Shown piece after piece: positions 17,239-60,490 of a stretch of 64,000 nucleotides of DNA. A program made the translations under genes and the position numbers. This stretch comes from a virus (lineage: Duplodnaviria; Heunggongvirae; Uroviricota; Caudoviricetes). Numbering within the stretch: position 1 is the stretch's first letter; the number at the start of each line of letters is the position of its first letter. Below the pieces are notes generated by a model that had not been told where the DNA came from, ran no database searches, and was given only the letters and a program-made list of their open reading frames with translations. Location of the stretch: the IMG/VR virus record IMGVR_UViG_3300046000_008568, positions 94,501-158,500 of that record; one strand, 5' to 3'.

Positions 17239-17301
17239 CAAAGTATGGAATAACATCGCTCCCGTAATGCCATGGCTCGTATACGAGTGACGGGAGACAA
17301 T

Positions 17302-17374
17302 GGACCTTTTGTATAGCTGGTGCGTACGCTAGTCTGAAGAACTAGAGGAGTAGGTTCGATTCCTACAGGGTCCA
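17302..17374 (+). tRNA. tRNA-Phe (GAA)
   Basis: Acceptor GGACCTT/AGGGTCC; anticodon stem CTAGT/ACTAG with loop CTGAAGA; T-arm GTAGG-TTCGATT-CCTAC. Confidence 0.65.
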
Positions 17375-17382
17375 CAATAAAT

Positions 17383-17457
17383 TGGTCTGAAGCTTAAGAG
17401 GTATATAGCGGAGGTTTGTTAAACCTAGGATAGCAGGTTCGAGTCCTGTCAGACCAG
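17383..17457 (+). tRNA. tRNA-Asn (GTT)
   Basis: Acceptor TGGTCTG/CAGACCA; anticodon loop TTGTTAA; T-arm GCAGG-TTCGAGT-CCTGT. Confidence 0.55.
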
Positions 17458-17464
17458 CAAAAAT

Positions 17465-17538
17465 AGGTAATTAGCTCAATTGGTTAGAGCACTCGCCTGA
17501 TACGTGAGAGGTTATAGGTTCGATTCCTATATTACCTA
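17465..17538 (+). tRNA. tRNA-Ile (GAT)
   Basis: Acceptor AGGTAAT/ATTACCT; D-arm GCTC..GAGC; anticodon stem CTCGC/GTGAG with loop CTGATAC; T-arm ATAGG-TTCGATT-CCTAT. Confidence 0.65.
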
Positions 17539-17544
17539 CAAAAT

Positions 17545-17629
17545 GGAAAGTAAATCAACATGGTGTTGAGTCCGCCTGCTAAGCGAGGCGTTCGGGTAAC
17601 CGGATTCAGTTCGATTCTGATTCTTTCCT
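17545..17629 (+). tRNA. tRNA-Ser-like (GCT), class II, imperfect
   Basis: 85 nt; anticodon loop CTGCTAA; long variable arm; T-loop TTCGATT; mismatches in the acceptor and T stems. Confidence 0.35.
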
Positions 17630-17920
17630 CTTTAAAAACCTGGTCCCTGTCCTCATAACGTGTTTAAGGAACACAGGAGTTGAATGTGCAATCGGGGCGG
17701 ATAGTGGTGGGACACTGATAAATAAAATCTTAAGCACAAAGATAAGTTAACGGGTTCTTATCAAACTACCGACTTGATCTAGGATCGAGAATATTTCATA
17801 AGTATTCCCAGACAAGAGCGTAACTTGTAGTCGGTACAATATGGTGTTCGAAGCTTTTTAGTGAAGCGCAAGACTGTGAATCTTGAGAAGATGGGGCGGT
17901 ACCGTTCTTACACCCAAAAT

Positions 17921-17994
17921 GCCCCTATGGTGAAACTGGTAAACACAACGGTTTTAAGCGCCGTAAGCTGTAGGTTCGAGTCCTACTGGGGGCA
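17921..17994 (+). tRNA. tRNA with anticodon TAA (Leu codon UUA) but a short variable arm
   Basis: Acceptor GCCCCTA/TGGGGGC; anticodon stem ACGGT/GCCGT with loop TTTAAGC; variable arm AAGCT (5 nt); T-arm GTAGG-TTCGAGT-CCTAC. Confidence 0.5.
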
Positions 17995-17999
17995 CAACT

Positions 18000-18071
18000 G
18001 GTCTTATAGTTTAATTGGAAAAACTTATCGCTACGAACGATAGAACGTAGGTTCGACTCCTACTAAGACCT
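18000..18071 (+). tRNA. tRNA-Arg (ACG)
   Basis: Acceptor GGTCTTA/TAAGACC; D-arm GTTT..AAAC; anticodon stem TATCG/CGATA with loop CTACGAA; T-arm GTAGG-TTCGACT-CCTAC. Confidence 0.65.
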
Positions 18072-18231
18072 CAAAATATAATTACAAAGCGTAGGTAAGA
18101 AGACGTGGAGAGACGTTGCGCAAGGGTACACACTAAGGATAAGTATTTATACTCAACTCTCTAATGGTGTGTGAAGCACTAAGAAATTAGAACCCAGATT
18201 CCTGATAAAACTTACTAATTATATTTTACTT

Positions 18232-18303
18232 GCCCGTATAGTTTAATTGGAAGAACTAAACGCTTCTAACGTTTCAGTCCTGGTTCAAGTCCAGGTATGG
18301 GTT
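18232..18303 (+). tRNA. tRNA-Arg (TCT)
   Basis: Anticodon stem AAACG/CGTTT with loop CTTCTAA; T-arm CCTGG-TTCAAGT-CCAGG; acceptor has two G-U pairs. Confidence 0.55.
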
Positions 18304-18310
18304 CAAAAAT

Positions 18311-18381
18311 GCGGGTCACAGACAAGGTGTCGGTACGGTCTCCAAAACTGCTACGGGTAAGTTCGATTCTTACGGCCTGCG
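18311..18381 (+). tRNA. tRNA-Trp-like (CCA), atypical D-arm
   Basis: Acceptor GCGGGTC/GGCCTGC with G-U pairs; T-arm GTAAG-TTCGATT-CTTAC; anticodon loop CTCCAAA; D-arm is irregular. Confidence 0.4.
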
Positions 18382-18447
18382 CAAAATTATTAATTATGAA
18401 AAAGAAATTCGATATGCATTAAGTTTATTAACTTAAAATGCATAAAA

Positions 18448-18630
18448 ATGAGAATCAAAAATCATACTCAGAAAGAGTATAAAAAAGAAAAAAGAAAACA
18501 ATCCAAAGATGGTGGAATGTGGTTTGAAGACTATTGGAGTAAATGTAAATCCGGAATATGGGCCTTCAAGTACAGAGAATACAGAACCTGGAAGTATAAC
18601 AGAAAAACACAATACAAACCTTTAAAATAA
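18448..18630 (+). CDS. small basic protein
   Basis: 60 aa, Lys/Arg/Tyr/Trp-rich; sits between the tRNA sub-arrays. Confidence 0.3.
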   Translation: MRIKNHTQKEYKKEKRKQSKDGGMWFEDYWSKCKSGIWAFKYREYRTWKYNRKTQYKPLK

Positions 18631-18636
18631 GTTATC

Positions 18637-19143
18637 ATGAGTAAGTACCAAAGAACACTGGTAATTGATTCAAGCTTTATGGCAAGATCCATTATCTCTA
18701 CCGAAAGAGCTTTCGTGATTTCGTATAAGGGTAATGCAGAAGTTATAGCTGAACATCCAGAAACATTCGGATTAGTAAATCCAAAACTAGAAATTTTTAA
18801 ACCTTCAATCATTAGGGTTTACAAATACGTAAAACAAAACATTCAAAAAGTTCCTCTAACAAGAGAGAATGTTTATCGAAGAGATAACTATGAATGTGTT
18901 TATTGTGGATCAAGTTATTTAAAATCACTAACTTTAGATCACGTTATTCCACAATCAAAAGGTGGAGCAAATGCTTGGGATAATTTAGTAACAGCATGTA
19001 GAAGTTGCAATTCACAAAAAGCAGATTTAACACTGGAGGAATATGGTAAAGAAATAGTAGAACCAAAAAGACCTCATTACTTAATGCTTATGAAACAACT
19101 AACATATGTTCCAAAAGAATGGGAAACATTTTTATTCTTTTAA
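18637..19143 (+). CDS. HNH homing-type endonuclease
   Basis: 168 aa; CVYCGSSY...LDHVIPQSKGG...WDNLVTACRSCNSQK is the classic HNH C-x2-C / H-N-H / C-x2-C pattern. Confidence 0.7.
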   Translation: MSKYQRTLVIDSSFMARSIISTERAFVISYKGNAEVIAEHPETFGLVNPKLEIFKPSIIRVYKYVKQNIQKVPLTRENVYRRDNYECVYCGSSYLKSLTLDHVIPQSKGGANAWDNLVTACRSCNSQKADLTLEEYGKEIVEPKRPHYLMLMKQLTYVPKEWETFLFF

Positions 19144-19190
19144 TTGGTTATTAAAAATATTGTTCGTATATTTAAGTATAATAAAGAGAT

Positions 19191-19376
19191 ATGAAAACCG
19201 AACAACAAATTAGAGAAAAGTACGAAGAGATGCTAAAGCATACAGAAGACTTGGATGATATGGTTCAAAACCCAAGTAAATATAGTGGTATTAATATTGA
19301 CAATATTCAAGATCATATAAAAGTAAGGGAAGAACAATATAAAATGAATACTCTGATTGAGTGGATTTTAAAATAA
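19191..19376 (+). CDS. hypothetical protein
   Basis: 61 aa ORF. Confidence 0.3.
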   Translation: MKTEQQIREKYEEMLKHTEDLDDMVQNPSKYSGINIDNIQDHIKVREEQYKMNTLIEWILK

Positions 19377-19453
19377 TAAATCACCTACTACATAACACGG
19401 CGCCAAATTAATTGTGACATGTACTGTCTGGAAGGTCAGGCTAGGTGATAAAT

Positions 19454-19523
19454 GGGCAGGATGGTTATGGAGACCGGCGGGATTGCAAACTCCGCAGAGT
19501 AAGTTCGATTCTTACCTTGCCCT
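19454..19523 (+). tRNA. tRNA-Cys (GCA)
   Basis: Acceptor GGGCAGG/CTTGCCC; anticodon loop TTGCAAA identical to canonical Cys; T-arm GTAAG-TTCGATT-CTTAC. Confidence 0.55.
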
Positions 19524-19618
19524 CATTTAAGGTTCGACCTTCTACCAAATGTGTTACACCCACAGATGGACATCGAGAGGGAGCTACCGATTGATAAGTG
19601 ACCGCACATGCGGTAAAT

Positions 19619-19692
19619 GCCCGAGTAGCCGAATTGGTATAGGCGCTAGACTTAGGATCTAGATTTTGCGAGTTCGAGTCTCGCCTTGGGTA
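19619..19692 (+). tRNA. tRNA with anticodon TAG (Leu codon CUA) but a short variable arm
   Basis: Anticodon stem CTAGA/TCTAG with loop CTTAGGA; variable arm ATTTT; T-arm GCGAG-TTCGAGT-CTCGC; acceptor GCCCGAG/CTTGGGT. Confidence 0.5.
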
Positions 19693-19851
19693 CGATAGTA
19701 GGACCGGGTTACCGGATATGGGTTCCTTAATTGGGCAGAAGGATTGGACGCCAAGCGCCTGGCCGCCTACAGATAAAATTAGAGTTAGCTTATAGTAAAG
19801 CAGCAGGGGCTAACCTGCAGAACGGATACGAAAACCGACTCTAATTTACTT

Positions 19852-19925
19852 GCTCTCGACGCACAAATGGTGGTGCACCGGATTTGTAACCCGGAATAGA
19901 GCCAGTTCGATCCTGGCCGAGAGCT
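19852..19925 (+). tRNA. tRNA-Thr (TGT)
   Basis: Acceptor GCTCTCG/CGAGAGC; D-arm GCAC..GTGC; anticodon loop TTTGTAA; T-arm GCCAG-TTCGATC-CTGGC. Confidence 0.6.
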
Positions 19926-19933
19926 CAATAATT

Positions 19934-20006
19934 GCGAATGTCGTATAACGGCTAATTATTCTTGACTTCCAATCAAGGGATGAGGGTTCGATTCCCTCCA
20001 TTCGCT
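19934..20006 (+). tRNA. tRNA-Gly (TCC)
   Basis: Acceptor GCGAATG/CATTCGC; anticodon stem CTTGA/TCAAG with loop CTTCCAA; T-arm GAGGG-TTCGATT-CCCTC. Confidence 0.65.
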
Positions 20007-20012
20007 CAAAAT

Positions 20013-20084
20013 GGCCCTATCGTCTATCGGTTAGGACACATGGTTTTCATCCATGAAAGTCGGGTTCGACTCCCGGTGGGGCTA
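20013..20084 (+). tRNA. tRNA-Glu (TTC)
   Basis: Anticodon stem CATGG/CCATG with loop TTTTCAT; T-arm TCGGG-TTCGACT-CCCGG. Confidence 0.6.
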
Positions 20085-20089
20085 CAATT

Positions 20090-20161
20090 GGGGCTATAGT
20101 ATAACGGCTATTACAATGGTTTTGCAAATCATAAATTGGAGTTCGATTCTCCATAGCTCCA
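20090..20161 (+). tRNA. tRNA-Ala (TGC)
   Basis: Acceptor GGGGCTA/TAGCTCC; anticodon stem ATGGT/ATCAT with loop TTTGCAA; T-arm TGGAG-TTCGATT-CTCCA. Confidence 0.6.
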
Positions 20162-20235
20162 CAAAATCGATCATAAGAGGATTGACCTATGAGGCTAATA
20201 GGTAAGTGATTGACAACTTGGAAAGACAGGTAACT

Positions 20236-20310
20236 GGTCCTATCGTTCAACGGCTAGGATGTAAGCTTGTCACGCTTATGATGAGGGTTCGATTCCCTCT
20301 AGGACCGCCA
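20236..20310 (+). tRNA. tRNA-Asp (GTC), with encoded 3' CCA
   Basis: Acceptor GGTCCTA/TAGGACC; anticodon stem TAAGC/GCTTA with loop TTGTCAC; T-arm GAGGG-TTCGATT-CCCTC; discriminator G followed by CCA. Confidence 0.65.
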
Positions 20311-20313
20311 TAT

Positions 20314-20387
20314 TGCGGGTTGGTAGAAGTTGGTATCTCGTGAGCCTCATAAGCTTAAGGTCGGGGGTTCGAGTCCCTCACCCGCTA
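20314..20387 (+). tRNA. tRNA-Met (CAT), with unpaired 1:72
   Basis: Anticodon stem TGAGC/GCTTA with loop CTCATAA; T-arm GGGGG-TTCGAGT-CCCTC; first acceptor base pair is a T-T mismatch. Confidence 0.5.
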
Positions 20388-20394
20388 CTAAATC

Positions 20395-20468
20395 GTCCTT
20401 TTAGCTCAGTTGGTCAGAGCAGCTCGCTCATAACGAGAAGGTCACAGGTTCGAGCCCTGTATAGGACA
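20395..20468 (+). tRNA. tRNA-Met or tRNA-Ile2 (CAT)
   Basis: D-arm GCTC-AGTTGGTCA-GAGC; anticodon loop CTCATAA; T-arm ACAGG-TTCGAGC-CCTGT. Confidence 0.55.
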
Positions 20469-20531
20469 CTAAATTTATTCAATATGAGGTCAATTCCTTC
20501 ATCTCCAATGTAGGTTAGCTATTGCTAACTT

Positions 20532-35128: not shown

Positions 35129-35197
35129 TGTTGTGAGGCGTATTGGTATACGCACCGATCGAAAGGGAGATAGTAGGTTCGATTCCTACCACAACAT
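35129..35197 (+). ncRNA. isolated degenerate tRNA-like element
   Basis: Acceptor TGTTGTG/CACAACA; D-arm GCGT-ATTGGTAT-ACGC; T-arm GTAGG-TTCGATT-CCTAC; no foldable anticodon arm; lies 15 kb from the tRNA array. Confidence 0.4.
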
Positions 35198-35214
35198 CAA
35201 ATAATTTAAAACAA

Positions 35215-35949: not shown

Positions 35950-36700
35950 TTTTTTTTGTTTAACGCATTGTTTTTTTGTTGTACACAACGCCATGTATAA
36001 TTGGAGTTCATTGAAACTATCGCGTATTTTTGCGCAATAAACGCGGTTTTTTTGTTGCTTAAGCAGTATAGTAACGTTTGTAGAACAAGACGCAAGTAGG
36101 TCAAACAGTTTGTGTGGTAATGGTTTTTTTGTAACAAATGCATTATAGTATATGGAATGCTATATAATAATGGGTATTGTGGTTTGTTGTGTAGGGGCAA
36201 ATCCCCGCCCCGCTCCGTCCCGTTTCCTTCGAAACCAAAACGTATATACAACGTTTCGTAACGCTTTGTTCAATATTTGTGCGATGTTTTGTTGTTTTAT
36301 TGCAGTATCCTCAGTCGCCACACGCGGAAGGAATTCTCATTCACAATGAAGTGGCGATTTTGTTGTGAACAATGCAATTTCGGCGACAAATTTGGTTACC
36401 TCAAGTTTTTTTTGTATATTATATTAAACATAAAATAAATTTTATATGCCTATTATCGTACCGTTTCCCGTTTATGGATTGCTTTTTGGAATACAATATG
36501 TCGCTGGCGACGTAGATGAGAATTTTGATCTAGACGACGACGTCCACATGGTCCAAATTGCACTTGGTTTTTTTGGTTTATCCATTATGTGGTAAGACCG
36601 TAGTGTTTTTTTTTTGTTCACAACTTTTTTTGCTAGAAATTTGGCTACGTTATTTTTGTGTCGTAATTTTATAGCAGAGTTAAAATAAACAAATATTAAC
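35950..36700. other. 750-bp non-coding region with iterated T7-8G(T) tracts and CACAA/TTGTG inverted repeats
   Basis: At least eight TTTTTTTGT copies, some after short hairpins (e.g. CGCGT...ACGCG at 36026-36055); the track ORFs in this region are short with odd composition. Confidence 0.4.
36661..36686 (+). promoter_or_regulatory. conserved early promoter cassette, copy 4
   Basis: TCGTAATTTTATAGCAGAGTTAAAAT + AAAGGTTATG. Confidence 0.5.
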
Positions 36701-36716: not shown

Positions 36717-37040
36717 ATGACACGTAATGAAATCATTGCAACAGTAAAAGAAATGGGTATCAAAACGCAACGCCCAGCACATCAAATGAAAACAGAAGCT
36801 CTTCAAGCGCTGTTAGACGCCCACACAAGCGAGACAAAAGCTCGTGGACGTAAAATTAATTTGGGTAGCGCCCGCCAAGCCAGATTAGCTGCCAGAGCGG
36901 CTCTTGAGCTAGAGGGACCAGTCCAAAAAGGCCGACGCGTCAATACAGCTAGTGCTCGTCAACAACGATTAGCTGCTTTTGAGGCACGCAAGGCGAATGG
37001 TGAGACCATCAAGCGAGGAAGACCGGCTCTGGCAATGTAA
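36717..37040 (+). CDS. basic protein with SAP/Rho_N-like N-terminus and internal repeats
   Basis: 107 aa; two copies of (K/R)GR(K/R)xNxxSARQxRLAAxxA; higher GC than its neighbours. Confidence 0.45.
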   Translation: MTRNEIIATVKEMGIKTQRPAHQMKTEALQALLDAHTSETKARGRKINLGSARQARLAARAALELEGPVQKGRRVNTASARQQRLAAFEARKANGETIKRGRPALAM

Positions 37041-38540: not shown

Positions 38541-38549
38541 TTGAATAAA

Positions 38550-39110
38550 ATGAAAACATTAGTTATACACCCTAAAGACAAATCAACTGATTTCCTCAAG
38601 CCAATCTACGCCGGCCTAGATGAGGTCACTCTAGTGACTGGGGGCCTGAACCAAGAAGATATACTTCAGGCAATCCAGACGCACGATCAAGTGATGATGA
38701 TGGGGCATGGGAGTCCAAGCGGGTTGTTTGCCGTGGGGCAATTTCCATTCGCCCGGCCCTATTCGGGCTATGTGATCGGGGCTGATCTAGTTGAGGCGCT
38801 GAGCCAGAAGGACAACAACATTTTTATCTGGTGTAACGCAGACCAGTTTGTCAACCGACATGAGCTCAAGGGCTTCTATAGCGGGATGTTTGTCTCTGAG
38901 ACCGGCGAGGCTTTTTATTGCGGCGTCAAGACATTTGATCAGGTGTCCGTAACCGAATCGAATGACACGTTCGCCCGCCTGCTCGGGGAGTGTCTTCAGG
39001 CCACGCGCGCGCCAGAAGAGATCCACAGCCAGATAAAAGAACAGTATGGCTCTCTAGCCGGCACTAACCTTATAGCGGCATATAATCATCAACGTCTTTA
39101 TTTGAATTAA
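38550..39110 (+). CDS. GC-rich (about 50%) horizontally acquired gene of unknown function
   Basis: 186 aa from the ATG at 38550 (the track start at 38541 is TTG); uses GGG/GCC/CGC codons rare elsewhere in the window; flanked by cassette promoter 7 and a normal terminator. Confidence 0.5.
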   Translation: MKTLVIHPKDKSTDFLKPIYAGLDEVTLVTGGLNQEDILQAIQTHDQVMMMGHGSPSGLFAVGQFPFARPYSGYVIGADLVEALSQKDNNIFIWCNADQFVNRHELKGFYSGMFVSETGEAFYCGVKTFDQVSVTESNDTFARLLGECLQATRAPEEIHSQIKEQYGSLAGTNLIAAYNHQRLYLN

Positions 39111-40890: not shown

Positions 40891-41196
40891 ATGGAAATTA
40901 AATTAATGAATTTTACAGACAATTTAAACGATGTTAATAAATTTAACAGTAAAAAGTTTAATTGTGAAATTGACGATGCAGTAAATAATGTTTACTGTTG
41001 TGAGTTACAATTAAAAGATTGTGATGGTAGCTGTTTAGAGAGTATATTAGCTGATATAGTTTATAGTGAGTTAAGTTGTATAGTTGTTATAAATAATAAT
41101 GATCATTATACTGTAAATAATGATAATGATCGTGATAATGTTTATAATGAAATTAAATTAAAATATAATTTAACTGATTTGGAAATTTGGAGTTAA
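40891..41196 (+). CDS. Asn/Asp-rich hypothetical protein
   Basis: 101 aa, very C-poor coding sequence. Confidence 0.4.
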   Translation: MEIKLMNFTDNLNDVNKFNSKKFNCEIDDAVNNVYCCELQLKDCDGSCLESILADIVYSELSCIVVINNNDHYTVNNDNDRDNVYNEIKLKYNLTDLEIWS

Positions 41197-41210
41197 AAAT
41201 AATAAAAATT

Positions 41211-41236
41211 AAAGACTCTTAATTGAGTCTTTTTTA
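41211..41236 (+). terminator. rho-independent terminator (AGACTCTTAATTGAGTCT family)
   Basis: Same hairpin followed by a T-run. Confidence 0.6.
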
Positions 41237-41325
41237 ATCTATATTAACCCAAAGCTATATTTAGTTATTTAGAATGAATATAAATGGTAAAATAATTGTA
41301 AATATATTTTGTTATGTTGTGTTTT

Positions 41326-41352
41326 ATTATTATCTTTATAGTGTTAAAATAA
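41326..41352 (+). promoter_or_regulatory. early promoter cassette, C-depleted variant (copy 12)
   Basis: TTATTATCTTTATAGTGTTAAAATAA + AAGGTTATG. Confidence 0.4.
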
Positions 41353-41376
41353 ATAATTAATTAAAAAATTAAGGTT

Positions 41377-41616
41377 ATGAAAAAATTAAGTTTTGGGTTT
41401 TGCTTTTATGGTAGTAAAAAAGGTTTAAAAGATTGTGAGAAATGTGAGAATGTTTTATTAGAAAATAATATTGAATTTGAAAGAAATGATAGAATGTATA
41501 ATTTTAAAAGTTTCTTTAAAAGTAAAGATTTATTAAATGATAAAATTAATAATGTTAGAAATTTAATGTTAGAAAATGATATAATAAAATATGTTATTTT
41601 TGAGGGTGAGAAATAA
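41377..41616 (+). CDS. hypothetical protein lacking Ala/Thr/Pro/His/Gln
   Basis: 79 aa; only 2-3 cytosines in the gene. Confidence 0.4.
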   Translation: MKKLSFGFCFYGSKKGLKDCEKCENVLLENNIEFERNDRMYNFKSFFKSKDLLNDKINNVRNLMLENDIIKYVIFEGEK

Positions 41617-41652
41617 ATAAATTAAAATAAGGTTGGAGGTGTAAGCCTCCTT

Positions 41653-41680
41653 CCTTAATTTTATATCAGAGTTTAAAACA
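41653..41680 (+). promoter_or_regulatory. conserved early promoter cassette, copy 13
   Basis: CCTTAATTTTATATCAGAGTTTAAAACA preceded by a GGAGG-TGTAA-GCCTCC hairpin. Confidence 0.4.
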
Positions 41681-41705
41681 ACAATTAATAATTAAAATTA
41701 AAGTT

Positions 41706-41906
41706 ATGAAAAATTATTTAGTAATTAGTATTGAAGACGTAAATGACACTTTTGAAGTTAATGATTTAGATGAATTAATTAAAGATATGTACTCACAAGA
41801 ATTATTTGATGGTTCATTTGAAACAGTTAAAAAGTGGTTTTTTAATAATTACAATGTTTATGAAAGTGAAAGTGAAATTAAATTATTAAAATTAGAAGAC
41901 TCTTAA
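41706..41906 (+). CDS. acidic hypothetical protein
   Basis: 66 aa. Confidence 0.4.
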   Translation: MKNYLVISIEDVNDTFEVNDLDELIKDMYSQELFDGSFETVKKWFFNNYNVYESESEIKLLKLEDS

Positions 41907-41920
41907 TTGAGTCTTTTTTT
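41896..41920 (+). terminator. rho-independent terminator (AGACTCTTAATTGAGTCT family)
   Basis: Same hairpin followed by T7G. Confidence 0.6.
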
Positions 41921-41974
41921 GTCTAATAATATATTAAAAATATTTTGTGATTTGTTTGTTTATATGGAATTAAT

Positions 41975-42000
41975 ATGTTAATTTTATAGTGTTAAAATAA
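41975..42000 (+). promoter_or_regulatory. early promoter cassette, C-free variant (copy 14)
   Basis: ATGTTAATTTTATAGTGTTAAAATAA. Confidence 0.4.
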
Positions 42001-42027
42001 TTAAATAATAATTAAAAAATTAGTGTT

Positions 42028-42444
42028 ATGGAAAAGTATTTAGGTAAAATGTTAGGTAAAGAAGTTAAGTTAGAATTAGAGAATGTTTATGAGAAGTATT
42101 GTTGGAATGATTTAGGTGTTGGGGATGATAGTAGAATGGATAGAGATGAGTGGAGTAAAATGTTGGAGAAGTTTGTTGATTTTAGATTATATGTTAGTGG
42201 GGGAAGGTATGGTTGTAGTATGGGAAGTGTTGGTTGTGAGAGTGTAAGTGGGTTTTTAAATGAGATATTTTTATTTGATAATATGATGTGTGATTGGGGT
42301 GGGTGTTATAGAGGTGATTTTAGTTATGAGTGTTTAGATGGGTTAATTGAATTATTAAATGAAAGTAGTTTAAGTGATGATATTAAGGAGATGATAATTG
42401 ATGGGTATAAAGAAGAGAATGGATTAAATGATGATGAAGAATAA
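42028..42444 (+). CDS. hypothetical protein encoded without any C-containing codon
   Basis: 138 aa with no Ala, Thr, Pro, His or Gln; Gly/Asp/Glu/Cys-rich. Confidence 0.45.
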   Translation: MEKYLGKMLGKEVKLELENVYEKYCWNDLGVGDDSRMDRDEWSKMLEKFVDFRLYVSGGRYGCSMGSVGCESVSGFLNEIFLFDNMMCDWGGCYRGDFSYECLDGLIELLNESSLSDDIKEMIIDGYKEENGLNDDEE

Positions 42445-42520
42445 AAATAAATAATGTAAGTATAAATGATGAAATAGTTTGAAAATAATTTATATTTAGT
42501 TAGGTTATGTTGAATTAAAG

Positions 42521-42547
42521 TTGTAATTTTATAGTGTTAAAAAATAA
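42521..42547 (+). promoter_or_regulatory. early promoter cassette, C-free variant (copy 15)
   Basis: TTGTAATTTTATAGTGTTAAAAAATAA. Confidence 0.4.
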
Positions 42548-42572
42548 TATTAATAATTAAAAATTAGAAAAA

Positions 42573-42824
42573 ATGGAAGAAATTTTAATTGATTTATTTG
42601 GTTGTGGAAATGATAATGAGTATGAAAGTGGAGAAAGAGTTGAATGTTTATTTGAAGATGAGGAGTATAATGATAGAGAAAATTATGATGATGAGTTTGT
42701 AGATGATTGGATTGAGTTAAAGAATAGGTTAAAAAATGGAATGATTGTAAATAAAGAATTTAATGGTGATATTAATTTTGAATTAGTAGGTGAAGATATA
42801 TTAATGTGGTTTATAGAAGAATAA
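42573..42824 (+). CDS. acidic hypothetical protein encoded without any C-containing codon
   Basis: 83 aa with no Ala/Thr/Pro/His/Gln. Confidence 0.45.
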   Translation: MEEILIDLFGCGNDNEYESGERVECLFEDEEYNDRENYDDEFVDDWIELKNRLKNGMIVNKEFNGDINFELVGEDILMWFIEE

Positions 42825-42895
42825 TTTAGTATAAGTATAAATGATGAAATAGTTTGAAAATAATTTATATTTAGTTTGGTTTATAGATTTATAGT

Positions 42896-42924
42896 TTGTA
42901 ATTTTATATCTGAGTTTAAAACAA
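42896..42924 (+). promoter_or_regulatory. conserved early promoter cassette, copy 16
   Basis: TTTGTAATTTTATATCTGAGTTTAAAACA. Confidence 0.45.
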
Positions 42925-42951
42925 CAATTAACAATTAAAACAATTAAAATT

Positions 42952-43122
42952 ATGTCTACATTAAAATTTAGTGACGGAGAAGAATTCGATTTAACAGGCG
43001 AATTAAGAACAGAAGAACGATACGACGGATGGTATGTGTTAGGAGAAAACCAAATGATACCTGTATGCGATGAAGAAGATGCATTACGTACGATTGATAA
43101 ATTAAACATGCTAAAGCAATAA
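42952..43122 (+). CDS. small acidic protein (56 aa), not in track
   Basis: ATG 42952 behind cassette 16; TAA 43120. Confidence 0.3.
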   Translation: MSTLKFSDGEEFDLTGELRTEERYDGWYVLGENQMIPVCDEEDALRTIDKLNMLKQ

Positions 43123-43149
43123 CGCTATGAAAAGACAAGACATAAATGC

Positions 43150-43560
43150 AGGAATATTCATTATCATATGGATATCAGCAATAGTAACAGCTATAGCGTT
43201 CACTTAATAGGATACGCGCGTACACTAAACAACAACACACAACACGATAGAGGCGGCCAAATGGTCGCCTTCGTTAATCTAGCGCGCGCGCGCATGCCTG
43301 AAATAAAAGAGACACGGGAGCCGGGCCTGCGACAAAAAAGATCGCCGGATCTGGGGCTCTGGAGGGAGGAAGGTCTTTTCTGATCCGCTAGCGCTGCGCG
43401 CGCGCTGCGACGGCGAAATGGCCCCACGGTAATTGCGGTCCATCGACGCTGCGCTACAAAAATGTGAGAAGGCCCCGTCCCTACAGATAAACGACAAAAA
43501 CCCGCCCGCGCATTTCATATATACAAATATACCATAAAAATCATTATAACCCCTTTAGCC
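43150..43560. other. GC-rich (about 60%) non-coding island with alternating (GC)n tracts
   Basis: CTAGCGCGCGCGCGCATG at about 43277 and CTAGCGCTGCGCGCGCGCTGCG at about 43388; the track ORFs here overlap one another on both strands. Confidence 0.6.
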
Positions 43561-43666
43561 ACAAAATCCGAGGGGGTGAACTCCTTCTCTCTACAAAATT
43601 TCTTTCAAAGCCGAAACGTATATACGAGAGTGTGGATTATAAAAAGACTATTCGTATATTTAGAGC

Positions 43667-43918
43667 ATGAAAATAAGAACTATGGAAGAACAAGGTATAT
43701 TATTAGAACACGCATCATTTAGTTTCTCACAAGACGCCAATTGTCTATCAGATCAAGACGAATATGAATTTTTAGAGATAAAAGCACATTCAAGTATAGG
43801 AATAGATAGAGATGAAGATTGTTTCTTTGTATTAAAAACAGAGAAATGGTCAGTAGATTCGGCAAAAGACCTAGAAGAGTTATTTGATAGAATAAGACAA
43901 GTAGTAATAAAAAAATAA
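43667..43918 (+). CDS. hypothetical protein
   Basis: 83 aa; upstream TTCGTATATTTAGAGC is a promoter-cassette variant. Confidence 0.4.
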   Translation: MKIRTMEEQGILLEHASFSFSQDANCLSDQDEYEFLEIKAHSSIGIDRDEDCFFVLKTEKWSVDSAKDLEELFDRIRQVVIKK

Positions 43919-44263: not shown

Positions 44264-44509
44264 TAATATACATGAACGCTACCATAGAATGGGCCGGTCC
44301 TCTTTATCCGGAATATTTTAAAAAAATAATGGCCGAGGGTGAATTACGCCACACAAAAGATGATGTACCATACTTAGTGTTAGAGGATAAACCGGCGCAA
44401 ATAACGCAAGTATAGCGCAAATTCGCGCGTGTCAAGTATTTTTACACGGTCTTATATTCATATGGTTTCAATATATTTATACCCAGCATTTAATATAAAT
44501 TAAAAAATA

Positions 44510-44992
44510 ATGACCAATAACTTTGATTTAAAATCGTTTTTAATAAAAAATAAAATGACCCGCAATTCAAAGCTTCTAGCTGAGGGTTCTGATAGTTTCA
44601 ATGAGCAAGATGAGGAAATAATAGTTGAACTTGACGATTACTTAATTAATAAAGCTTTAGATTTTAATGATGTAGATTGTGACGAGAAAGTTGAATTTCG
44701 TAAAACTCATTTTAAATGTACATATAGAGTAGAGACATCTGAATTGAATTACTCTTTAATACTTAGTACTACTTTTCTTTTTGATGGTGATGAAGATGGT
44801 GGTTTTCAAGGAGATTATATTACACTTACTGATTTTGACAAAATAGGTCCTTCATGGGAAGAATATGAAGATGAGTTGATAGATTTTGATGATGTTGATA
44901 TCGAATCATTAAATCGTAAAACACAAAATAGATTAGAACAAATTTTTGAGGAATTAAAAACCGATTGGTACGACGATCAATTTAATAATTAA
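44510..44992 (+). CDS. acidic hypothetical protein
   Basis: 160 aa. Confidence 0.45.
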   Translation: MTNNFDLKSFLIKNKMTRNSKLLAEGSDSFNEQDEEIIVELDDYLINKALDFNDVDCDEKVEFRKTHFKCTYRVETSELNYSLILSTTFLFDGDEDGGFQGDYITLTDFDKIGPSWEEYEDELIDFDDVDIESLNRKTQNRLEQIFEELKTDWYDDQFNN

Positions 44993-45959: not shown

Positions 45960-46241
45960 ATGATTACCTTTATTATTATATTAATCCTTTTAGCAGGTGT
46001 ATTAGGTTATACTTCCTATAACTTATTTAAAAAAGTAGAGACACTAGAGAAAATGGTTGATGGTCAAGATAGATACATCCAACAGTTTTCTAATGCTGTT
46101 GACGTTACTAATAGAAGATTGGGAGAAATTGATGACAAGGGAACATTTCAATCTGATGATGAAATAGGATGGTTTTTCGAAAGCATTAAAACACTTCAGA
46201 ATGAACTAAACGACTTTAACCTTAATGGAACTAGAAACTAA
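45960..46241 (+). CDS. membrane-anchored protein
   Basis: 93 aa with an N-terminal TM helix. Confidence 0.4.
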   Translation: MITFIIILILLAGVLGYTSYNLFKKVETLEKMVDGQDRYIQQFSNAVDVTNRRLGEIDDKGTFQSDDEIGWFFESIKTLQNELNDFNLNGTRN

Positions 46242-46980
46242 TATACCCGTTATCGAGCTGACCAAATCTGGTCAGCCTCGTAAACGTAAACCCAAAACAT
46301 CCAATACTTACTTTACTGAAGATACTCAAAATGCTATTTTAGAATATGTGGCTTCAACTAACCAGGACTTTAGAGATAAGGTGTATCGTGAGCGTATAGA
46401 ATATGGGTTCTTTAAATTAACACAAAATATCATACATACTTTTAAGTTTTACTATACTGATGGTGAATCTATAGAAGATGTGCAGCAGGAAGTAATTGCT
46501 TTTTTACTTGAAAAACTTAGATTATATAAACCGGAGAAAGGTAAAGCATATTCCTATTTTGGAACCATTACTAAACGTTATTTAATTCTTAAAAATAAGA
46601 AAAATTATCAAAAACTTCAAAACAAAGGTGACTTACTTGAAGTAGATGAGGATAAAACTATTAAAGAAGAAATTATAAACGATTATTACGGTAAAGATTA
46701 TAGCGTAAGTGAATTTATGGGTTTGTATATCAAATATATTGATAAACATCTTAATAGATTATTTCCTAAAGACCTTGATGCTAAAACAGCAGACGCTATT
46801 GTTGAACTGTTTCGTAAATGTGAATCGCTAGATATATTTAATAAAAAAGCACTTTACATATACATCCGTGAAATAGTAGATGTCGATACTCCCCAGATCA
46901 CTAAAATTATCAAAAAATTAAAAGTCACTTACGTTGAGCTATACAGCCAGTATTATTCAGACGGATATGTAAGAATATAG
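46225..46980 (+). CDS. late-transcription sigma factor, T4 gp55-like
   Basis: KGKAYSYFGTITKRY parallels the gp55 KKYSYFVHNVY core; it sits directly upstream of the baseplate genes. Confidence 0.45.
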   Translation: MELETNIPVIELTKSGQPRKRKPKTSNTYFTEDTQNAILEYVASTNQDFRDKVYRERIEYGFFKLTQNIIHTFKFYYTDGESIEDVQQEVIAFLLEKLRLYKPEKGKAYSYFGTITKRYLILKNKKNYQKLQNKGDLLEVDEDKTIKEEIINDYYGKDYSVSEFMGLYIKYIDKHLNRLFPKDLDAKTADAIVELFRKCESLDIFNKKALYIYIREIVDVDTPQITKIIKKLKVTYVELYSQYYSDGYVRI

Positions 46981-47017
46981 AGTTTTATAGCTTTTATATT
47001 TATAACCAAAAATAATT

Positions 47018-47374
47018 ATGGATTTTGAACAAGTAATGTGGGGTAATAAGAAATTTTCTGATTTACTCAAGGACATTTATAATAACTCAAAAGAGAAGGA
47101 AAAACAAATCAAAGAATTAATTGAGACATTAAAACCATTAGTTACTAATTCTCAATCAGCTCTTATGATTGTTCCTTTAATCGCCGAACATCTTAATATA
47201 AGCGTAAAGAATGATGACCAATTAATTAAATTGGCTAGTATAGTACAACGCGCTATGAATACTTCTTCTTCAGATGAAGCTGCTCATATGATTTTAAGCG
47301 AAGCAGAAAAACAACAACTATTCTCAGCGGTAAACGAAATCGGAGGTACTATTAACGGACCTAAAGCAGAGTAA
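47018..47374 (+). CDS. hypothetical protein
   Basis: 118 aa. Confidence 0.4.
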   Translation: MDFEQVMWGNKKFSDLLKDIYNNSKEKEKQIKELIETLKPLVTNSQSALMIVPLIAEHLNISVKNDDQLIKLASIVQRAMNTSSSDEAAHMILSEAEKQQLFSAVNEIGGTINGPKAE

Positions 47375-52526: not shown

Positions 52527-52559
52527 TAACTCTATATTTATAGCAAATAAATAATATAA

Positions 52560-53696
52560 ATGGCCGTTTATAAAATATTTCCCGAAAAGGACACAACTAT
52601 CTATTCTGAATTTCCTGATCTTAATACAGGATTGGATTCTATATTAGAAGTAAAGAATACTGTTCCTACTTTAAATAGTGATACTCAAGTATCTAGAACA
52701 TTAATTCAATTTCCTTCTGATAAGATGTTAGAAGTTTCTGCTTTAATTTTTAATACAAATACTATCCCTGTTGTTGGTCCTGTTCCTCCATCTACTCCTA
52801 CGGGAATGTATAGTGCCTCTTTAAAATTATTCATAGCAGAAGCATATAACCTACCAGATAATTATACTTTATATTGCTACGCAACTTCACAATCATGGCA
52901 AGCAGGAACAGGAAGATATTTATATGATCCTCCTTATACTCAAGATTGTAATTGGTATAATAGAGATAACAGTAATGCGTGGCCTACTTCTAGTTTCTTT
53001 ACTGATACTACTGCTTCCTTTAACTTTAATACTCCTGGGGGTGGTGTTTGGTGGGATATATATTTTGGATCTCAATCGTTTATAATAAACACTACTAAAG
53101 ATACTAATATAAATGTTACTGATATTGTAGAGACATTTAATACTCCTGGTTTTTTAGAGAATAATGGATTCCTATTAAAATTTGAAGACCTGTATGAATT
53201 TAATGCTTCGTCTTCTTATTCATTAAAATTTTTTTCTAAAGACACTCATACTATATATCTTCCTCAACTTGAATTTGGTTGGGATGATAGTGTTTATAAT
53301 ACGGGATCATTATCTGTATTAGGAGATCAAAATGTAGCCGTTACTTTAGGTAATAATGTAGGGTTTTATAATGTAAATGATGTATGCCAATTCAGAGTAA
53401 ATGCACGACCTATTTATCCTCCTCGTCAATTTACAACCCAATCGGTATTTACTCTAAATAGTGCTTTACCTTCATCTTCTTATTATGCTATACAGGATTT
53501 AGACACAGAAGAATATGTTGTAAATTTTAGTGAAGAACATACCAAAATAAGTTGTGATACCGCAGGGAACTTTTTTACGTTATACACTGCTGGGTTTCAA
53601 CCCGAAAGATATTATAAAATATTGATTAAATCTACATTTAGTAATGGTTCATCTGTTATATATAATAACGATTATATTTTTAAAATAAATAAATAA
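52560..53696 (+). CDS. baseplate/tail-fibre-associated structural protein
   Basis: 378 aa, Asn/Thr/Ser-rich. Confidence 0.35.
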   Translation: MAVYKIFPEKDTTIYSEFPDLNTGLDSILEVKNTVPTLNSDTQVSRTLIQFPSDKMLEVSALIFNTNTIPVVGPVPPSTPTGMYSASLKLFIAEAYNLPDNYTLYCYATSQSWQAGTGRYLYDPPYTQDCNWYNRDNSNAWPTSSFFTDTTASFNFNTPGGGVWWDIYFGSQSFIINTTKDTNINVTDIVETFNTPGFLENNGFLLKFEDLYEFNASSSYSLKFFSKDTHTIYLPQLEFGWDDSVYNTGSLSVLGDQNVAVTLGNNVGFYNVNDVCQFRVNARPIYPPRQFTTQSVFTLNSALPSSSYYAIQDLDTEEYVVNFSEEHTKISCDTAGNFFTLYTAGFQPERYYKILIKSTFSNGSSVIYNNDYIFKINK

Positions 53697-59782: not shown

Positions 59783-59827
59783 AAGACATAAAACACAAAT
59801 ATTTATAAACAAATAATTAATTAATAA

Positions 59828-60490
59828 ATGGCTATATTAAATAACAATACTGTAACAATTGATGCAGTTTTAACAGCTAAAGGTAGAGAATTGCTAGCTA
59901 GAAACGATGGTTCTTTTAGAATTACACAATTCTCTTTGGCAGACGACGAAGTGGATTATACATTATATAATCCATCGCAACCATCAGGATCTGCGTTTTA
60001 CGGACAAGCAATTGAAGCTATGCCTGTAATGGAAGCATTCCCAGATGATACGCAAATTATGATTTATAAATTAGTAACTTTACCTAGAGGTACAGCTAAA
60101 TTACCTGTAATTAATGTTGGATACAATAGTATCTCATTAAAACAAGGAGCTACATTAACCATTACTCCTCAAACATTAAATTACTTAGGTGCTACTAGTA
60201 CATTTGAAGCTAATGGGTACGCTATTACAATTGCTGATGTTAGATTCTTATCTACATTCTCGGCAACAGGCGTCCCAGGCTCAACAACTACACCAACAGG
60301 TGTTACGTCAACAGTAGGTTCACAATTAAGCCAAACTATTATAGGTACTTCGTTTACATTAACTGGTACTACAATTAATACATTATTTGGTTCTGGTTTA
60401 AATCAAATTACAACTACTTTAACAGTACTAGGTAGAGATTCAGGAGCCAGAATTACAATTCCAGTAACAATCACAAAATCAAATTCATAA
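59828..60490 (+). CDS. virion structural protein
   Basis: 220 aa. Confidence 0.4.
   Translation: MAILNNNTVTIDAVLTAKGRELLARNDGSFRITQFSLADDEVDYTLYNPSQPSGSAFYGQAIEAMPVMEAFPDDTQIMIYKLVTLPRGTAKLPVINVGYNSISLKQGATLTITPQTLNYLGATSTFEANGYAITIADVRFLSTFSATGVPGSTTTPTGVTSTVGSQLSQTIIGTSFTLTGTTINTLFGSGLNQITTTLTVLGRDSGARITIPVTITKSNS

Follow-up and report, generated by a model that had tools for sequence, protein, structure and literature searches.

The window analyzed here, 64,000 nucleotides of viral DNA with 32% GC, holds a GC-rich non-coding island where its early gene cassettes end. The island core, at 43208–43512, is 57.7% GC and contains the highest 300-nt GC value anywhere in the window (0.58 at 43211, against a mean of 0.322 and an sd of 0.055), with a CpG observed/expected ratio of 1.42 compared to 0.70 for the window. 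Elsewhere in the window, tRNA genes account for the non-coding GC peaks. A first-pass annotation had placed a GC-rich non-coding island at 43150–43560 (50.1% GC). The island exists and lies within this interval, but the left end takes in a real small ORF (43127–43207) and the right edge is too short, as the conserved element to which the island belongs spans 43208–43666 in the window.

The early region upstream is partly free of cytosine and includes a run of 986 nt (41924–42909) with zero C on the + strand. The island had been described as following this C-free region immediately. Instead, an early cassette (ORF 42952–43122) and a small ORF for 26 hydrophobic amino acids (MKRQDINAGIFIIIWISAIVTAIAFT; 43127–43207, + strand) intervene. 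No early coding sequence lies between this small ORF and the island, and the ORF itself is outside the element. In a close relative that is 96% identical (L065), it carries two synonymous changes, two I→V replacements, and one stop-to-stop change; other relatives have a different small ORF at this position.

At the 3′ edge of the element, a scan with the core pattern detected the last of 15 early-type promoter cores in the window (TTCGTATATTTAGAG; 43651–43665, + strand), with none in the remaining 20 kb. This core is predicted to drive the ORF at 43667–43918, whose true start is probably the ATG at 43682. Homologues of the encoded protein (p43667) align from residue 4–6 on, and two relatives (L066 and L068) have a similar promoter core upstream. 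Further downstream, the gene that starts at 46225 (w46225) matches Sigma70_r2 and is followed by baseplate genes. The earlier placement of the island at the early/late boundary is supported by the position of the last early-type core, at 43652, and its placement ahead of the sigma and baseplate block is also borne out. In our reading, the element lies where the early region, driven by host promoters, gives way to the genes running up to the phage's own sigma factor.

Conservation and anatomy of the element

A search of the homologous position in related phages, which the first-pass annotation had proposed, recovered the same element, syntenic with the sigma gene. An island-derived 18-mer had homologues in 10 viral contigs, and one neighboring protein had 1187 metagenome homologues. 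In an unbiased sample based on the sigma gene, 31–33 of 80 loci contained the element, and its most conserved part, a 33-bp box, was present in at least 120 further metagenome contigs. Overall, the element was found in 152 phage and metagenome sequences. nhmmer detected one full copy per locus, and in sigma-oriented viral loci this copy is always on the gene strand, 1.7–3.3 kb upstream of the sigma gene. The immediate flanking genes vary among members; the block toward the sigma gene is conserved. We found no similarity to cultured phages or plasmids, and no element within 6–8 kb of the sigma-like gene in the nearest cultured relatives, Flavobacterium phage immuto, Microcystis phage Mel-JY01, and LR756508.

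A recent lineage-specific insertion was initially inferred, as the island is missing from 13 of the 14 contigs that carry a p43667 homologue. This was rejected, since it is p43667 that moves, whereas the element keeps its synteny with the sigma gene. An attP site was also rejected, as the box is absent from bacterial genomes apart from two contigs and no integrase was noticed when the loci were read by eye. These two contigs, the only ones with a 20-base box pattern among the genomes of 185,579 species, are a chance match in a 62% GC contig and a 2.9-kb phage-like contig in a Bacteroidetes bin. The latter contig, together with TTTG/TAnnTTTA promoters and A-rich leaders without a Shine-Dalgarno sequence, suggests a Flavobacteriia host.

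A hairpin on the + strand at 43252–43269 (GGCGGCC-AAAT-GGTCGCC, then TTCGTTAA) is found only in the window's subgroup (10 of the 112 members with enough upstream sequence), with changes confined to the loop and tail. It is probably a weak terminator of the last early cassette, which failed a terminator scan because its T-run is too short. The hairpin is followed by a variable GC-rich segment (43279–43386), in which most differences from L065 fall, including a 10-nt indel. This segment contains an A-loop hairpin (GCGACAAAAAAGATCGC; 43329–43345) that is one copy of a repeated TGYGACAAAAA motif; TGCGACAAAAA or TGTGACAAAAA is present twice in L080 and L084–L086.

Adjoining the variable segment are three tandem 11-bp iterons (43387–43419; GCTAGCGCTGC, GCGCGCGCTGC, and GACGGCGAAAT). 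Across the family, the iterons follow the consensus GATAGCGGnnY in 3–4 units with an 11-bp period (register from 28 sequences), in spellings that include GATAGCGG, GCTAGCGC, GTGTGCGG, and GATTGCGG. Mean self-identity was 0.47 at lag 11 compared to ~0.25 at other lags; the peak fell at lag 11 in 30 of 35 sequences. Lag-11 identity in the window was 0.43, a value reached by 88 of 10,000 shuffles, and Tandem Repeats Finder reported three 11-nt units in L082 (GATAGCGGAAT).

In phase with the iterons is the nearly invariant box (43420–43452; GGCCCCACGGT / AATTGCGGTCC / ATCGACGCTGC), which occurs once in the window. Alignments gave the 33-bp consensus GCTCCCAYGnn AATtGCGGTCC ATCGACGGgGC (also given as GCTCCCAYGnn AATTGCGGTCC ATCGACGG), in which the middle unit is iteron-like. 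Since the aligned sequences were found via the neighboring sigma gene, conservation of the box was not selected by the search. With its three in-phase units added to the 3–4 iterons, the array totals 6–7 units of 11 bp, one per helical turn.

Downstream of the box, a spacer (43453–43516) consists of ~25 variable nucleotides and a C-rich conserved stretch (CTACAGATAAACGACAAAAACCCGCCCGCGC; 43481–43511). Its total length is fixed, as the distance from the start of the box to the site that follows the spacer, site f, is 91–94 nt in 126 of 130 sequences. Site f (43517–43532; ATATATACAAATATAC) is conserved in all subgroups and is a palindromic AT-rich site with the family consensus GTATATAC-nn-ATATAC, also written GTATATACnnATATAC. 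It is followed by a 3′ module (43533–43625), conserved across subgroups, that comprises ATTATAACCCCTTT, a CCCCT/AGGGG hairpin, and a CT-rich tract. A 27-nt motif within this module (TTTCTTTCAAAGCCGAAACGTATATAC; 43599–43625) ends in site h (43618–43625), the second GTATATAC of the element. Among 50 members, 26 have a second GTATATAC 95–117 nt past site f. A further copy of the 3′ module lies at 36190–36249 of the window.

Coding, RNA, and Z-DNA readings of the island

Long open frames near the box are expected from GC richness, and a stop-codon census was uninformative, since chance alone keeps frames open in GC-rich DNA. The 10-nt indel in L065 falls within all three long island ORFs and splits the + strand ORF into two frames. 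No Pfam match was found for island ORFs on either strand. Across 28 relatives, 3-nt periodicity of column conservation was absent (4196 of 5000 permutations), while 11-nt periodicity was strong (14 of 5000 permutations). With its frames broken in L065, no Pfam match, and no codon periodicity, a protein-coding gene was rejected.

It is also extremely improbable that the island is the decaying remnant of a horizontally acquired GC-rich gene, without a function of its own. Two GC-rich genes in the same early region (36717–37040 and 38541–39110) are acquired coding genes, and the absence of the island from the 13 other contigs with a homologue of the downstream gene could be read in the same way. 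However, absence beside p43667 homologues shows only the mobility of p43667. The remnant reading is already contradicted by family-wide conservation, as the element keeps its position among phages with sigma factors no more than 55–60% identical and retains contiguous invariant runs of 10–15 nt, 11-nt phasing, and fixed spacing.

The island might instead encode a non-coding RNA or a cis-acting RNA, read from the + strand at the 3′ end of the last early transcript; it could act in antitermination, for example, or as a protein sponge through its repeated GAUAGCGG motifs. Structured RNAs often form GC-rich islands in AT-rich phages, as the tRNAs of the window do, the orientation of the element is conserved, and the + strand of the window island folds somewhat better than shuffles (z = −2.6; minus strand, z = −0.2). 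However, for 28–35 diverse members RNAalifold gave a consensus of −1.7 kcal/mol on the + strand (−1.72, with a covariation term of −0.36 and a compensatory double change in 1 of 11 predicted pairs) and −1.2 kcal/mol on the − strand. There is no conserved hairpin in the spacer, and hairpins near the box were barely above shuffles (33% of members compared to 25%). Rfam gave no gathering-score match in the window or eight relatives and none that was credible at E ≤ 10, where the sole match was a 15-nt chance match to ssnA. Moreover, an exact 11-nt phase, and a spacer whose length is constant while its sequence is free, are what a duplex DNA site would show. As no Rfam family, no consensus fold, and essentially no covariation were found on either strand, we rejected a structured RNA, and we regard an RNA-level role as very unlikely.

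The first-pass annotation had emphasized alternating (GC)6–7 tracts, which could favor Z-DNA or cruciforms, in two related elements that we located at 43279–43298 and 43388–43413. Alternating tracts are present, but their actual lengths are (GC)6 (43282–43293) and (GC)5 (43396–43405); 11-nt perfect inverted repeats coincide with these two tracts, which are able to pair mutually. The (GC)6 is lost in L065, the (GC)5 is a lineage-specific spelling of the 11-bp iteron (family consensus GATAGCGG), and a core tract of (GC)4 or longer is present in only 28 of 132 family members. A Z-DNA/cruciform element is not supported on these grounds, nor are the two strings as functional units. Comparison of family sequences shows that conservation in the island does not reside in its alternating GC tracts. 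Rather, they would be one iteron in this lineage's spelling plus an unconserved neighboring tract, and the high GC of the island may arise because GCG-rich binding units sit in an AT-rich genome. A third alternating tract, (CG)4C at 39004, is inside a coding GC-rich gene.

Since the repeats occur once per helical turn, the island is probably a protein docking site, rather than an RNA gene or a Z-DNA signal. We consider it very probable that the island is a copy of a conserved DNA-level protein-binding element. The candidate roles listed earlier (packaging site, terminal-repeat boundary, replication origin, and host-factor site) are all roles of a cis-acting DNA site, and this class is favored over RNA or gene.

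Origin and terminus readings and comparison with known systems

One role for such a site is an iteron-type replication origin, possibly promoter-coupled as in phage T4. A phage or host initiator would oligomerize on the repeats and box, the AT-rich palindromic GTATATACnnATATAC and the 3′ module would melt, and the transcript from the nearby promoter may prime synthesis. An origin would account for evenly spaced direct repeats (3–4 GATAGCGGnnY units at an 11-nt period, plus the three in-phase box units) beside AT-rich palindromes and a promoter, for the single full copy per locus, for the very strong conservation of the box sequence, and for conservation that is independent of the flanking genes. 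The array is followed by an AT-rich palindromic stretch (43512–43547) and the 3′ module, although such a stretch is not distinctive in a 32% GC genome. At the island, GC skew, which the first-pass annotation had proposed to examine, neither changed sign nor reached a cumulative minimum; it was positive on both sides in the window and in 17 relatives (mean in the relatives, +0.21 upstream and +0.10 downstream), and an origin could not be derived from skew. Genes on either side are all on the same strand. No initiator-like gene was recognized adjacent to the element, when part of the window ORFs were compared to family libraries and relatives were read by eye. DnaA-box-like 9-mers were present in only 16 of 105 members, and the lack of plasmid or cultured-phage similarity also weighs against an origin. 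Classical replication iterons are 17–22 bp; tandem 11-bp units are shorter and more tightly packed, which argues in the same direction. We therefore view an origin as possible but doubtful.

Comparison with established iteron systems gave partial likenesses. The origins of lambda and theta plasmids share direct repeats, an AT-rich neighbor, and A-tracts with the element, which is present in one copy per locus examined here. In those origins, however, the iterons are 17–22 bp and lie approximately two turns apart, and the initiator gene usually overlaps or adjoins the origin; neither the repeat length and spacing nor the adjoining initiator gene holds here. T4 oriE, like the element, has short direct repeats that recur at roughly each helical turn, lies in non-coding DNA of a large myovirus, is syntenic in relatives, and is near an early-type promoter, and in both cases the binding protein is unassigned. 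There is no sequence similarity between the two, the period is 11 nt rather than 12, and here the repeats run into an invariant box that is locked 91–94 bp from a palindrome. The oriE iterons are themselves without a demonstrated role in replication, which further weakens the case for an origin.

In plasmid R1 parC, two sets of five 11-bp iterons flank the par promoter and act as its operator, with one ParR dimer bound per iteron (PMC2241845). The element resembles parC in having tandem 11-bp direct repeats on one helix face beside a promoter-like sequence. By analogy, a small dimer would be expected to bind each repeat, giving a continuous array that doubles as an operator. Unlike parC, there is one array of 3–4 good iterons and three box units instead of two sets of five, and sites f and h lie 91–94 bp and ~190–210 bp away, not between two repeat sets. 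Further, no ParM-, ParR-, ParA-, or actin-like gene was noticed nearby when loci were read by eye, and there is no sign of plasmid maintenance in these phages.

One candidate for the binder was a ~60-aa protein whose gene directly follows the element in 27 of 74 members. Its sequence pattern is RHH-like by eye. We detected no RHH match and no Pfam or PDB sequence match, and an AF2 model (pLDDT 69) had no Foldseek match with E < 3. Its gene is missing from the window, and its presence is independent of iteron quality. As the gene is absent from 47 of 74 members with equally good iterons, an RHH iteron-binder/autoregulator was rejected.

The element could also be a packaging or entry signal, that is, a pac site that wraps around the small terminase, the boundary of a terminal repeat, or an injection stop signal like that of T5. 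Such a signal would fit a single, highly conserved phased-repeat site that ends early host-takeover-like cassettes. The T5 injection stop signal (iss) is likewise a repeat- and palindrome-rich cis site in a large untranslated region after the pre-early genes, within the left terminal repeat, and that region has eight conserved DnaA boxes (bioRxiv 10.1101/866236). In both cases, a conserved untranslated region closes off a block of small genes, pre-early or early, on its distal side. However, the T5 region is larger and is defined by its DnaA boxes, a conserved pattern that is absent here; the window has two DnaA-box-like 9-mers with one mismatch each, and such 9-mers are not conserved among members.

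Contig ends bear on the same question. Among 80 loci, contig breaks were more frequent upstream of the sigma gene than downstream (61 compared to 22), seven metagenome contigs end 18–32 nt past the box (1.1 expected), and three viral contigs begin 71–90 nt ahead of it. However, the upstream breaks are evenly spread over 0–6 kb with no pile at the element, and they are explained by the repeated promoter/terminator cassettes; one 162-kb contig ends inside an ordinary repeated early cassette. The ends 18–32 nt past the box coincide with the point where the invariant core meets the hypervariable spacer, and they would fit a branching there of assembly graphs from mixed strains. The window continues for 43 kb further upstream without a break. 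No terminase was recognized within ~6 kb downstream in relatives, with ORFs read by eye, and the element is followed by the sigma gene and then baseplate genes. With diffuse contig ends and no terminase seen, nothing singles out the packaging site or terminal-repeat boundary proposed in the first-pass annotation, and a signal of this kind is unlikely.

Possible transcription control at the early-to-middle boundary

For the protein-binding element, we tentatively favor a role as a transcription switch at the early-to-middle boundary, acting through a phased protein-binding platform. An oligomeric sequence-specific protein would bind the phased repeats along one helix face and, from this fixed position, activate or block transcription at the GTATATAC sites. 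As a result, the middle block, consisting of w44995-, w45772-, and w45960-like genes and the sigma factor, would be timed after the early cassettes. Outside the element, 30 of 35 GTATATAC sites are intergenic, compared to 18.9% of bases (p = 2.5e-17), an enrichment that overstates the number of independent events because the sites were counted on related sequences with AT-rich intergenic DNA. The intergenic sites are mostly 71–114 nt upstream of an ATG. As the palindrome recurs upstream of genes, transcription control, which was not among the roles listed earlier, is favored. The switch reading also draws on the last early-type core at the 3′ edge of the element, on the Sigma70_r2 match of w46225, and on the R1 parC iterons as a precedent for an operator.

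Several observations weigh against a switch. The 64-kb window has only three GTATATAC sites, approximately the number expected by chance from base composition. The flavobacterial sigma-A −7 box is TAnnTTTG (PMC9723704), and the palindromic GTATATAC does not resemble it. A dedicated promoter region would not usually have a variable first gene downstream, as the element does. Also, a 15-nt invariant stretch in phages with sigma factors 55–60% identical is more conservation than most operators show, and an origin or packaging signal would explain it no less well.

Two specific promoter types were rejected. GTATATAC is not a late promoter, as it is absent before the late genes, which carry TATATTTATA about 25–30 nt upstream of the ATG. 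By eye, the box contains a sigma-54 promoter look-alike (TCCCACG-N4-TTGC compared to TGGCACG-N4-TTGC). It was rejected, since every member has CC in place of the obligatory GG and the TTGC varies.

A further possibility, to which we assign little probability and less than to a packaging or entry signal, is that the protein array keeps two phases of infection physically apart, as a clade-wide gate at the end of the early region, holding back transcription or, as in T5, DNA entry until an early phage product releases it. The same site could double as an origin at which replication starts. To our knowledge, no helically phased iteron gate of this kind has been described for any Bacteroidota phage.

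Conserved non-coding DNA is rare in phage genomes and is usually an origin, a packaging signal, or a master regulatory region. The element, with its iterons, box, and palindromes at fixed spacing, is a precise landmark in an abundant, so far uncultured clade of aquatic phages. Its invariant 26-nt box is a specific probe for clade members in metagenomes, and its conservation would explain why assemblies of these phages tend to break there. If the element is an origin, it would be a second example of the unexplained phased iterons of the T4 oriE type, and one far easier to compare. If it is an early-to-middle switch, it would be the cis side of a new regulatory circuit controlling the phage sigma factor.

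Distribution of a GC-rich non-coding element

The window, a phage genome segment of 32% GC whose + strand carries all genes, reaches its highest 300-nt GC content at 43208-43512 (57.7% GC; 0.58 compared to a mean of 0.322, sd 0.055, across the 64 kb), inside the GC-rich island noticed in the first-pass annotation. The CpG observed/expected ratio is 1.42 in 43208-43512 vs. 0.70. The interval originally delimited, 43150-43560, averages 50% GC; at its left it takes in the last part of a small ORF, and at its right conserved sequence that is AT-rich. The two strings quoted for the island are both present (43279-43298 and 43388-43413), as are the alternating tracts, although their lengths are (GC)6 and (GC)5 rather than (GC)6-7.

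An exact 18-mer from the island retrieved ten viral contigs with a recognisably homologous region. A sample of 80 loci was also gathered by way of a conserved gene with a Sigma70_r2 match (46225-46980), so that there was no selection on the element itself. By a nucleotide profile, 31-33 of the 80 carry the element, in every case on the strand of the genes and at 1.7-3.3 kb upstream from the sigma gene, the homologous position at which a search had been suggested; nhmmer revealed a single full copy per locus. Most element-negative loci had short upstream sequence, while a minority lacked the element although their upstream flank spans 3-6 kb. A metagenome scan for the box, a nearly invariant 33-bp part of the element, recovered at least 120 contigs, bringing the element-bearing sequences to at least 152. 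The element was not found near the sigma-like gene of the cultured relatives Flavobacterium phage immuto (42% protein identity in the baseplate and sigma-like gene), Microcystis phage Mel-JY01 and LR756508, phage and plasmid collections held no similar sequence, and bacterial genomes had the box in only two contigs, one with 62% GC, where the match is due to chance, and one that is phage-like and sits in a Bacteroidetes bin. Since the genes directly beside the element vary between subgroups, the conservation belongs to the element itself. It represents a new family, of an already known kind, of cis-acting DNA elements with iterons, from an abundant clade of uncultured phages.

One comparison gave a misleading picture. 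The 83-aa gene p43667 (43667-43918), whose true start is likely the second ATG at 43682, has homologues of 66-98% identity in 14 viral contigs, and in 13 of these its neighbours are unrelated. Because 13 of the 14 contigs have no GC-rich island, the island could have been taken as a recent lineage-specific insertion; instead, p43667 itself is a mobile small gene.

GC richness is general to the element core (51.6% +/- 3.8%), but a (GC)4 or longer tract occurs in just 28 of 132 members and the (GC)6 tract is not kept in L065, a relative 96% identical over the region. We therefore dropped the idea that alternating GC favours Z-DNA or cruciforms. The island is a real conserved feature, but not on the grounds first offered.

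Anatomy of the element and its probable action as duplex DNA

From 5′ to 3′ on the gene strand, the region begins with a hairpin at 43252-43269 (GGCGGCC-AAAT-GGTCGCC, then TTCGTTAA) that only the window's subgroup has and that probably terminates the last early cassette. A variable GC-rich stretch (43279-43386) follows, which contains the (GC)6 tract and a hairpin with an A loop; most differences from L065 are located here. Next are three 11-bp iterons at 43387-43419 (GCTAGCGCTGC, GCGCGCGCTGC and GACGGCGAAAT; family consensus GATAGCGGnnY, 3-4 repeats). From this register, the second (GC)n tract reads as iteron 2 as spelt in the window's lineage. The iterons of one relative, L082, are near-perfect, with Tandem Repeats Finder reporting 3.0 copies of GATAGCGGAAT. 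The box (43420-43452) consists of three units in phase with the iterons (consensus GCTCCCAYGnn AATtGCGGTCC ATCGACGGgGC), the middle one iteron-like. The spacer (43453-43516) is free in sequence for its first ~25 nt and then has a conserved C-rich stretch, while its total length is fixed: box start and site f, the first of two palindromic sites, lie 91-94 nt apart in 126 of 130 sequences. Site f (43517-43532) reads ATATATACAAATATAC in the window and GTATATACnnATATAC in the family. The 3′ module (43533-43625) contains ATTATAACCCCTTT, a CT-rich tract and a 27-nt motif ending in a second GTATATAC, which is site h (43618-43625); the distance from site f to site h is 95-117 nt in 26 of 50 members. 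An early-type promoter core at 43651-43665 forms the 3′ edge.

The claim that the island is non-coding was confirmed. Its three ORFs (71-79 aa), which overlap on both strands, had no Pfam match, and a 10-nt insertion in L065 hits all three, splitting the + strand ORF into two frames. Column conservation across 28 diverse members had no 3-nt periodicity (4196 of 5000 permutations) and was strongly 11-periodic (14 of 5000 permutations reached the observed value). A decayed gene remnant is poorly supported, and we give it almost no credence.

A structured RNA is likewise poorly supported and very improbable. Simple hairpins close to the box are only slightly commoner than in shuffles. The window's + strand island folds somewhat better than shuffles (z = -2.6), but GC-rich palindromic repeats alone can yield such a value. 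The RNAalifold consensus was about -1.7 kcal/mol on the + strand and -1.2 on the - strand, with essentially no compensatory change. Rfam matched only tRNAs elsewhere in the window, leaving the island empty even at E <= 10, with no match in eight relatives either, and ARAGORN found no tRNA or tmRNA in the island.

Three independent measurements instead point to an element that acts as duplex DNA. Over the 57 nt that run up to just inside the box, self-identity stands at 0.47 for lag 11, 0.37 for lag 22 and ~0.25 elsewhere, with lag 11 the peak in 30 of 35 sequences; conservation has the same 11-nt period; and the spacer is fixed in length and free in sequence. An 11-bp period, which places equivalent contacts on one helix face, is the signature of an oligomeric protein array.

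The early region and contig ends

Fifteen early promoter cores (T[CT]GTA[AT]nTTTA[TG]A) lie across 16.5-43.65 kb (16537-43664), several with TTTG ~19-20 nt before them. The last is at the 3′ edge of the element (43652), and the remaining 20 kb has none. The -7 part of the core resembles the flavobacterial sigma-A box TAnnTTTG (PMC9723704). From sequence, the TTTG-plus-core pattern fits Bacteroidota sigma-A promoters, and A-rich leaders without Shine-Dalgarno likewise fit a Bacteroidota host. Many intrinsic terminators accompany the cores, with near-identical AAAGCGCTTCGGCGCTTT and AAAGACTCTTAATTGAGTCTTT recurring.

The island had been placed directly after a C-free region. The run is real (41924-42909, 986 nt with zero C on the + strand), but two ORFs come between it and the island: one at 42952-43122 in an early cassette of the usual kind, and a hydrophobic one of 26 aa (43127-43207, MKRQDINAGIFIIIWISAIVTAIAFT). 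L065 keeps the latter with two synonymous and two I->V changes, and it is probably a real small membrane peptide. Within the C-free run lie two small ORFs, 42028-42444 and 42573-42824, together with the promoters of both; the wider stretch 41000-42950 has 45 C vs. 375 G. Three close relatives (L065, L080 and L087) lack the block. Marked C depletion directly before the element also occurs in other relatives, with a GC skew of 0.55 in L140 and 0.48 in L118.

A ~500-nt conserved non-coding region at 35950-36450, with its first ~330 nt largely identical in L080 and L087, carries repeated TTTTTTTGT motifs and, at 36190-36249, has the hairpin plus TTTCYTTCRAARCCRAAACGTATATAC module once more. Since the densest early-cassette run starts here, the module copies bracket that 7-kb region (4.9 kb in L080 and L087). 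Two GC-rich (52-60%) genes at 36717-37040 and 38541-39110 (107 and 189 aa), each with its own early promoter and kept by relatives at 80-83% identity, look like acquisitions from a higher-GC source; Pfam did not match their products. The window's other non-coding GC peaks are explained by tRNA genes, nineteen within 16600-20469 and 35129-35198; an HNH endonuclease ORF (18637-19143) separates the two clusters that contain eighteen of these genes.

We consider a packaging, terminus or injection-stop signal improbable. Contig ends are commoner upstream than downstream of the sigma gene (61 vs. 22 of 80), but the upstream ends are scattered over 6 kb and a 162-kb contig ends within an ordinary repeated cassette. 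Among the metagenome contigs listed (L173-L292), seven end 18-32 nt after the box (1.1 expected). However, since these ends fall exactly where the invariant core meets the hypervariable spacer, they probably reflect assembly-graph branching among co-occurring strains. Three viral contigs begin 71-90 nt before the box; for these starts too, branching at the core edges is the probable cause and a physical nick or end the less likely one. Separately, relatives' contig breaks coincide with the repeated early promoter/terminator cassettes.

Proposed transcription control at the early-to-middle boundary

The roles first listed were all at the DNA level, and some of them may hold; the list omitted transcription control, which we place at its head. 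Four features would fit an iteron-type replication origin: the repeats, the single copy per locus, the very strong conservation and the lack of dependence on adjacent genes. A direct analogue is T4 oriE, with evenly spaced 12-nt repeats that are syntenic in relatives and early-promoter dependent and whose role is still undefined (PMC3016281). Against an origin, the inflection check first proposed revealed no sign change of GC skew in the window or 17 relatives, no initiator gene was recognised among the neighbouring ORFs scanned or read by eye, and DnaA boxes were not conserved. We regard an origin as rather unlikely; because T4 origins are promoter-coupled, it is compatible with transcription control.

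Downstream, relatives share an ordered block of genes like w44995 and w45772, a w45960-like membrane protein gene and the sigma factor gene, followed by baseplate genes. As to function, the palindrome GTATATAC gives the strongest hint. Outside the element, 30 of 35 GTATATAC occurrences (30 non-identical loci) are intergenic, where only 18.9% of bases lie (p = 2.5e-17, with the caveats that related sequences are not independent events and intergenic DNA is AT-rich). Most precede the next start codon by 71-114 nt, and the gene concerned is typically w44995-like or w45772-like. The window's three copies (33606, 36242 and 43618) are about the number expected by chance from base composition. Nevertheless, the conserved synteny of the intergenic sites speaks for GTATATAC being a control site that lies ahead of genes in the middle block.

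The motif in front of late genes is a different one, TATATTTATA, and lies ~25-30 nt ahead of the ATG in several genes downstream of the element (44470-44510, 46990-47018, 52530-52560 and 59795-59828). By sequence it may serve the phage sigma factor as a promoter, and its position is comparable with that of the T4 late promoter, TATAAATA.

A ~60-aa protein (LTKEAFEQYARQLREE..G.TLEEW; 1187 metagenome homologues) is encoded by the first gene 3′ of the element in 27 of 74 members (for example, L113 1582-1761 and L118 4207-4392), and a T5orf172-like gene is often next (41 of 74). The gene is absent from the window. A pattern seen by eye had marked the protein as a ribbon-helix-helix-like binder; neither sequence, model nor iteron comparison supported this. 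Pfam and PDB sequence searches returned no domain or match, its AlphaFold model (pLDDT 69; an unstructured N-terminus and three helices) had no significant Foldseek match, and iteron quality was independent of the gene (22.8 of 32 with it, 20.9 without).

Our preferred reading, held tentatively, is that the element is a transcription control region at the early-to-middle boundary. The nearest mechanistic precedent is R1 parC, in which 11-bp iterons each bind one dimer and act as operator of the promoter beside them (PMC2241845). In this reading, sites f and h belong to the same class of control site as the gene-upstream GTATATAC copies, and the iteron/box array keeps a constant spacing upstream of site f. 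By activating or blocking the GTATATAC sites, a phased protein array would time the block that holds the phage sigma factor.
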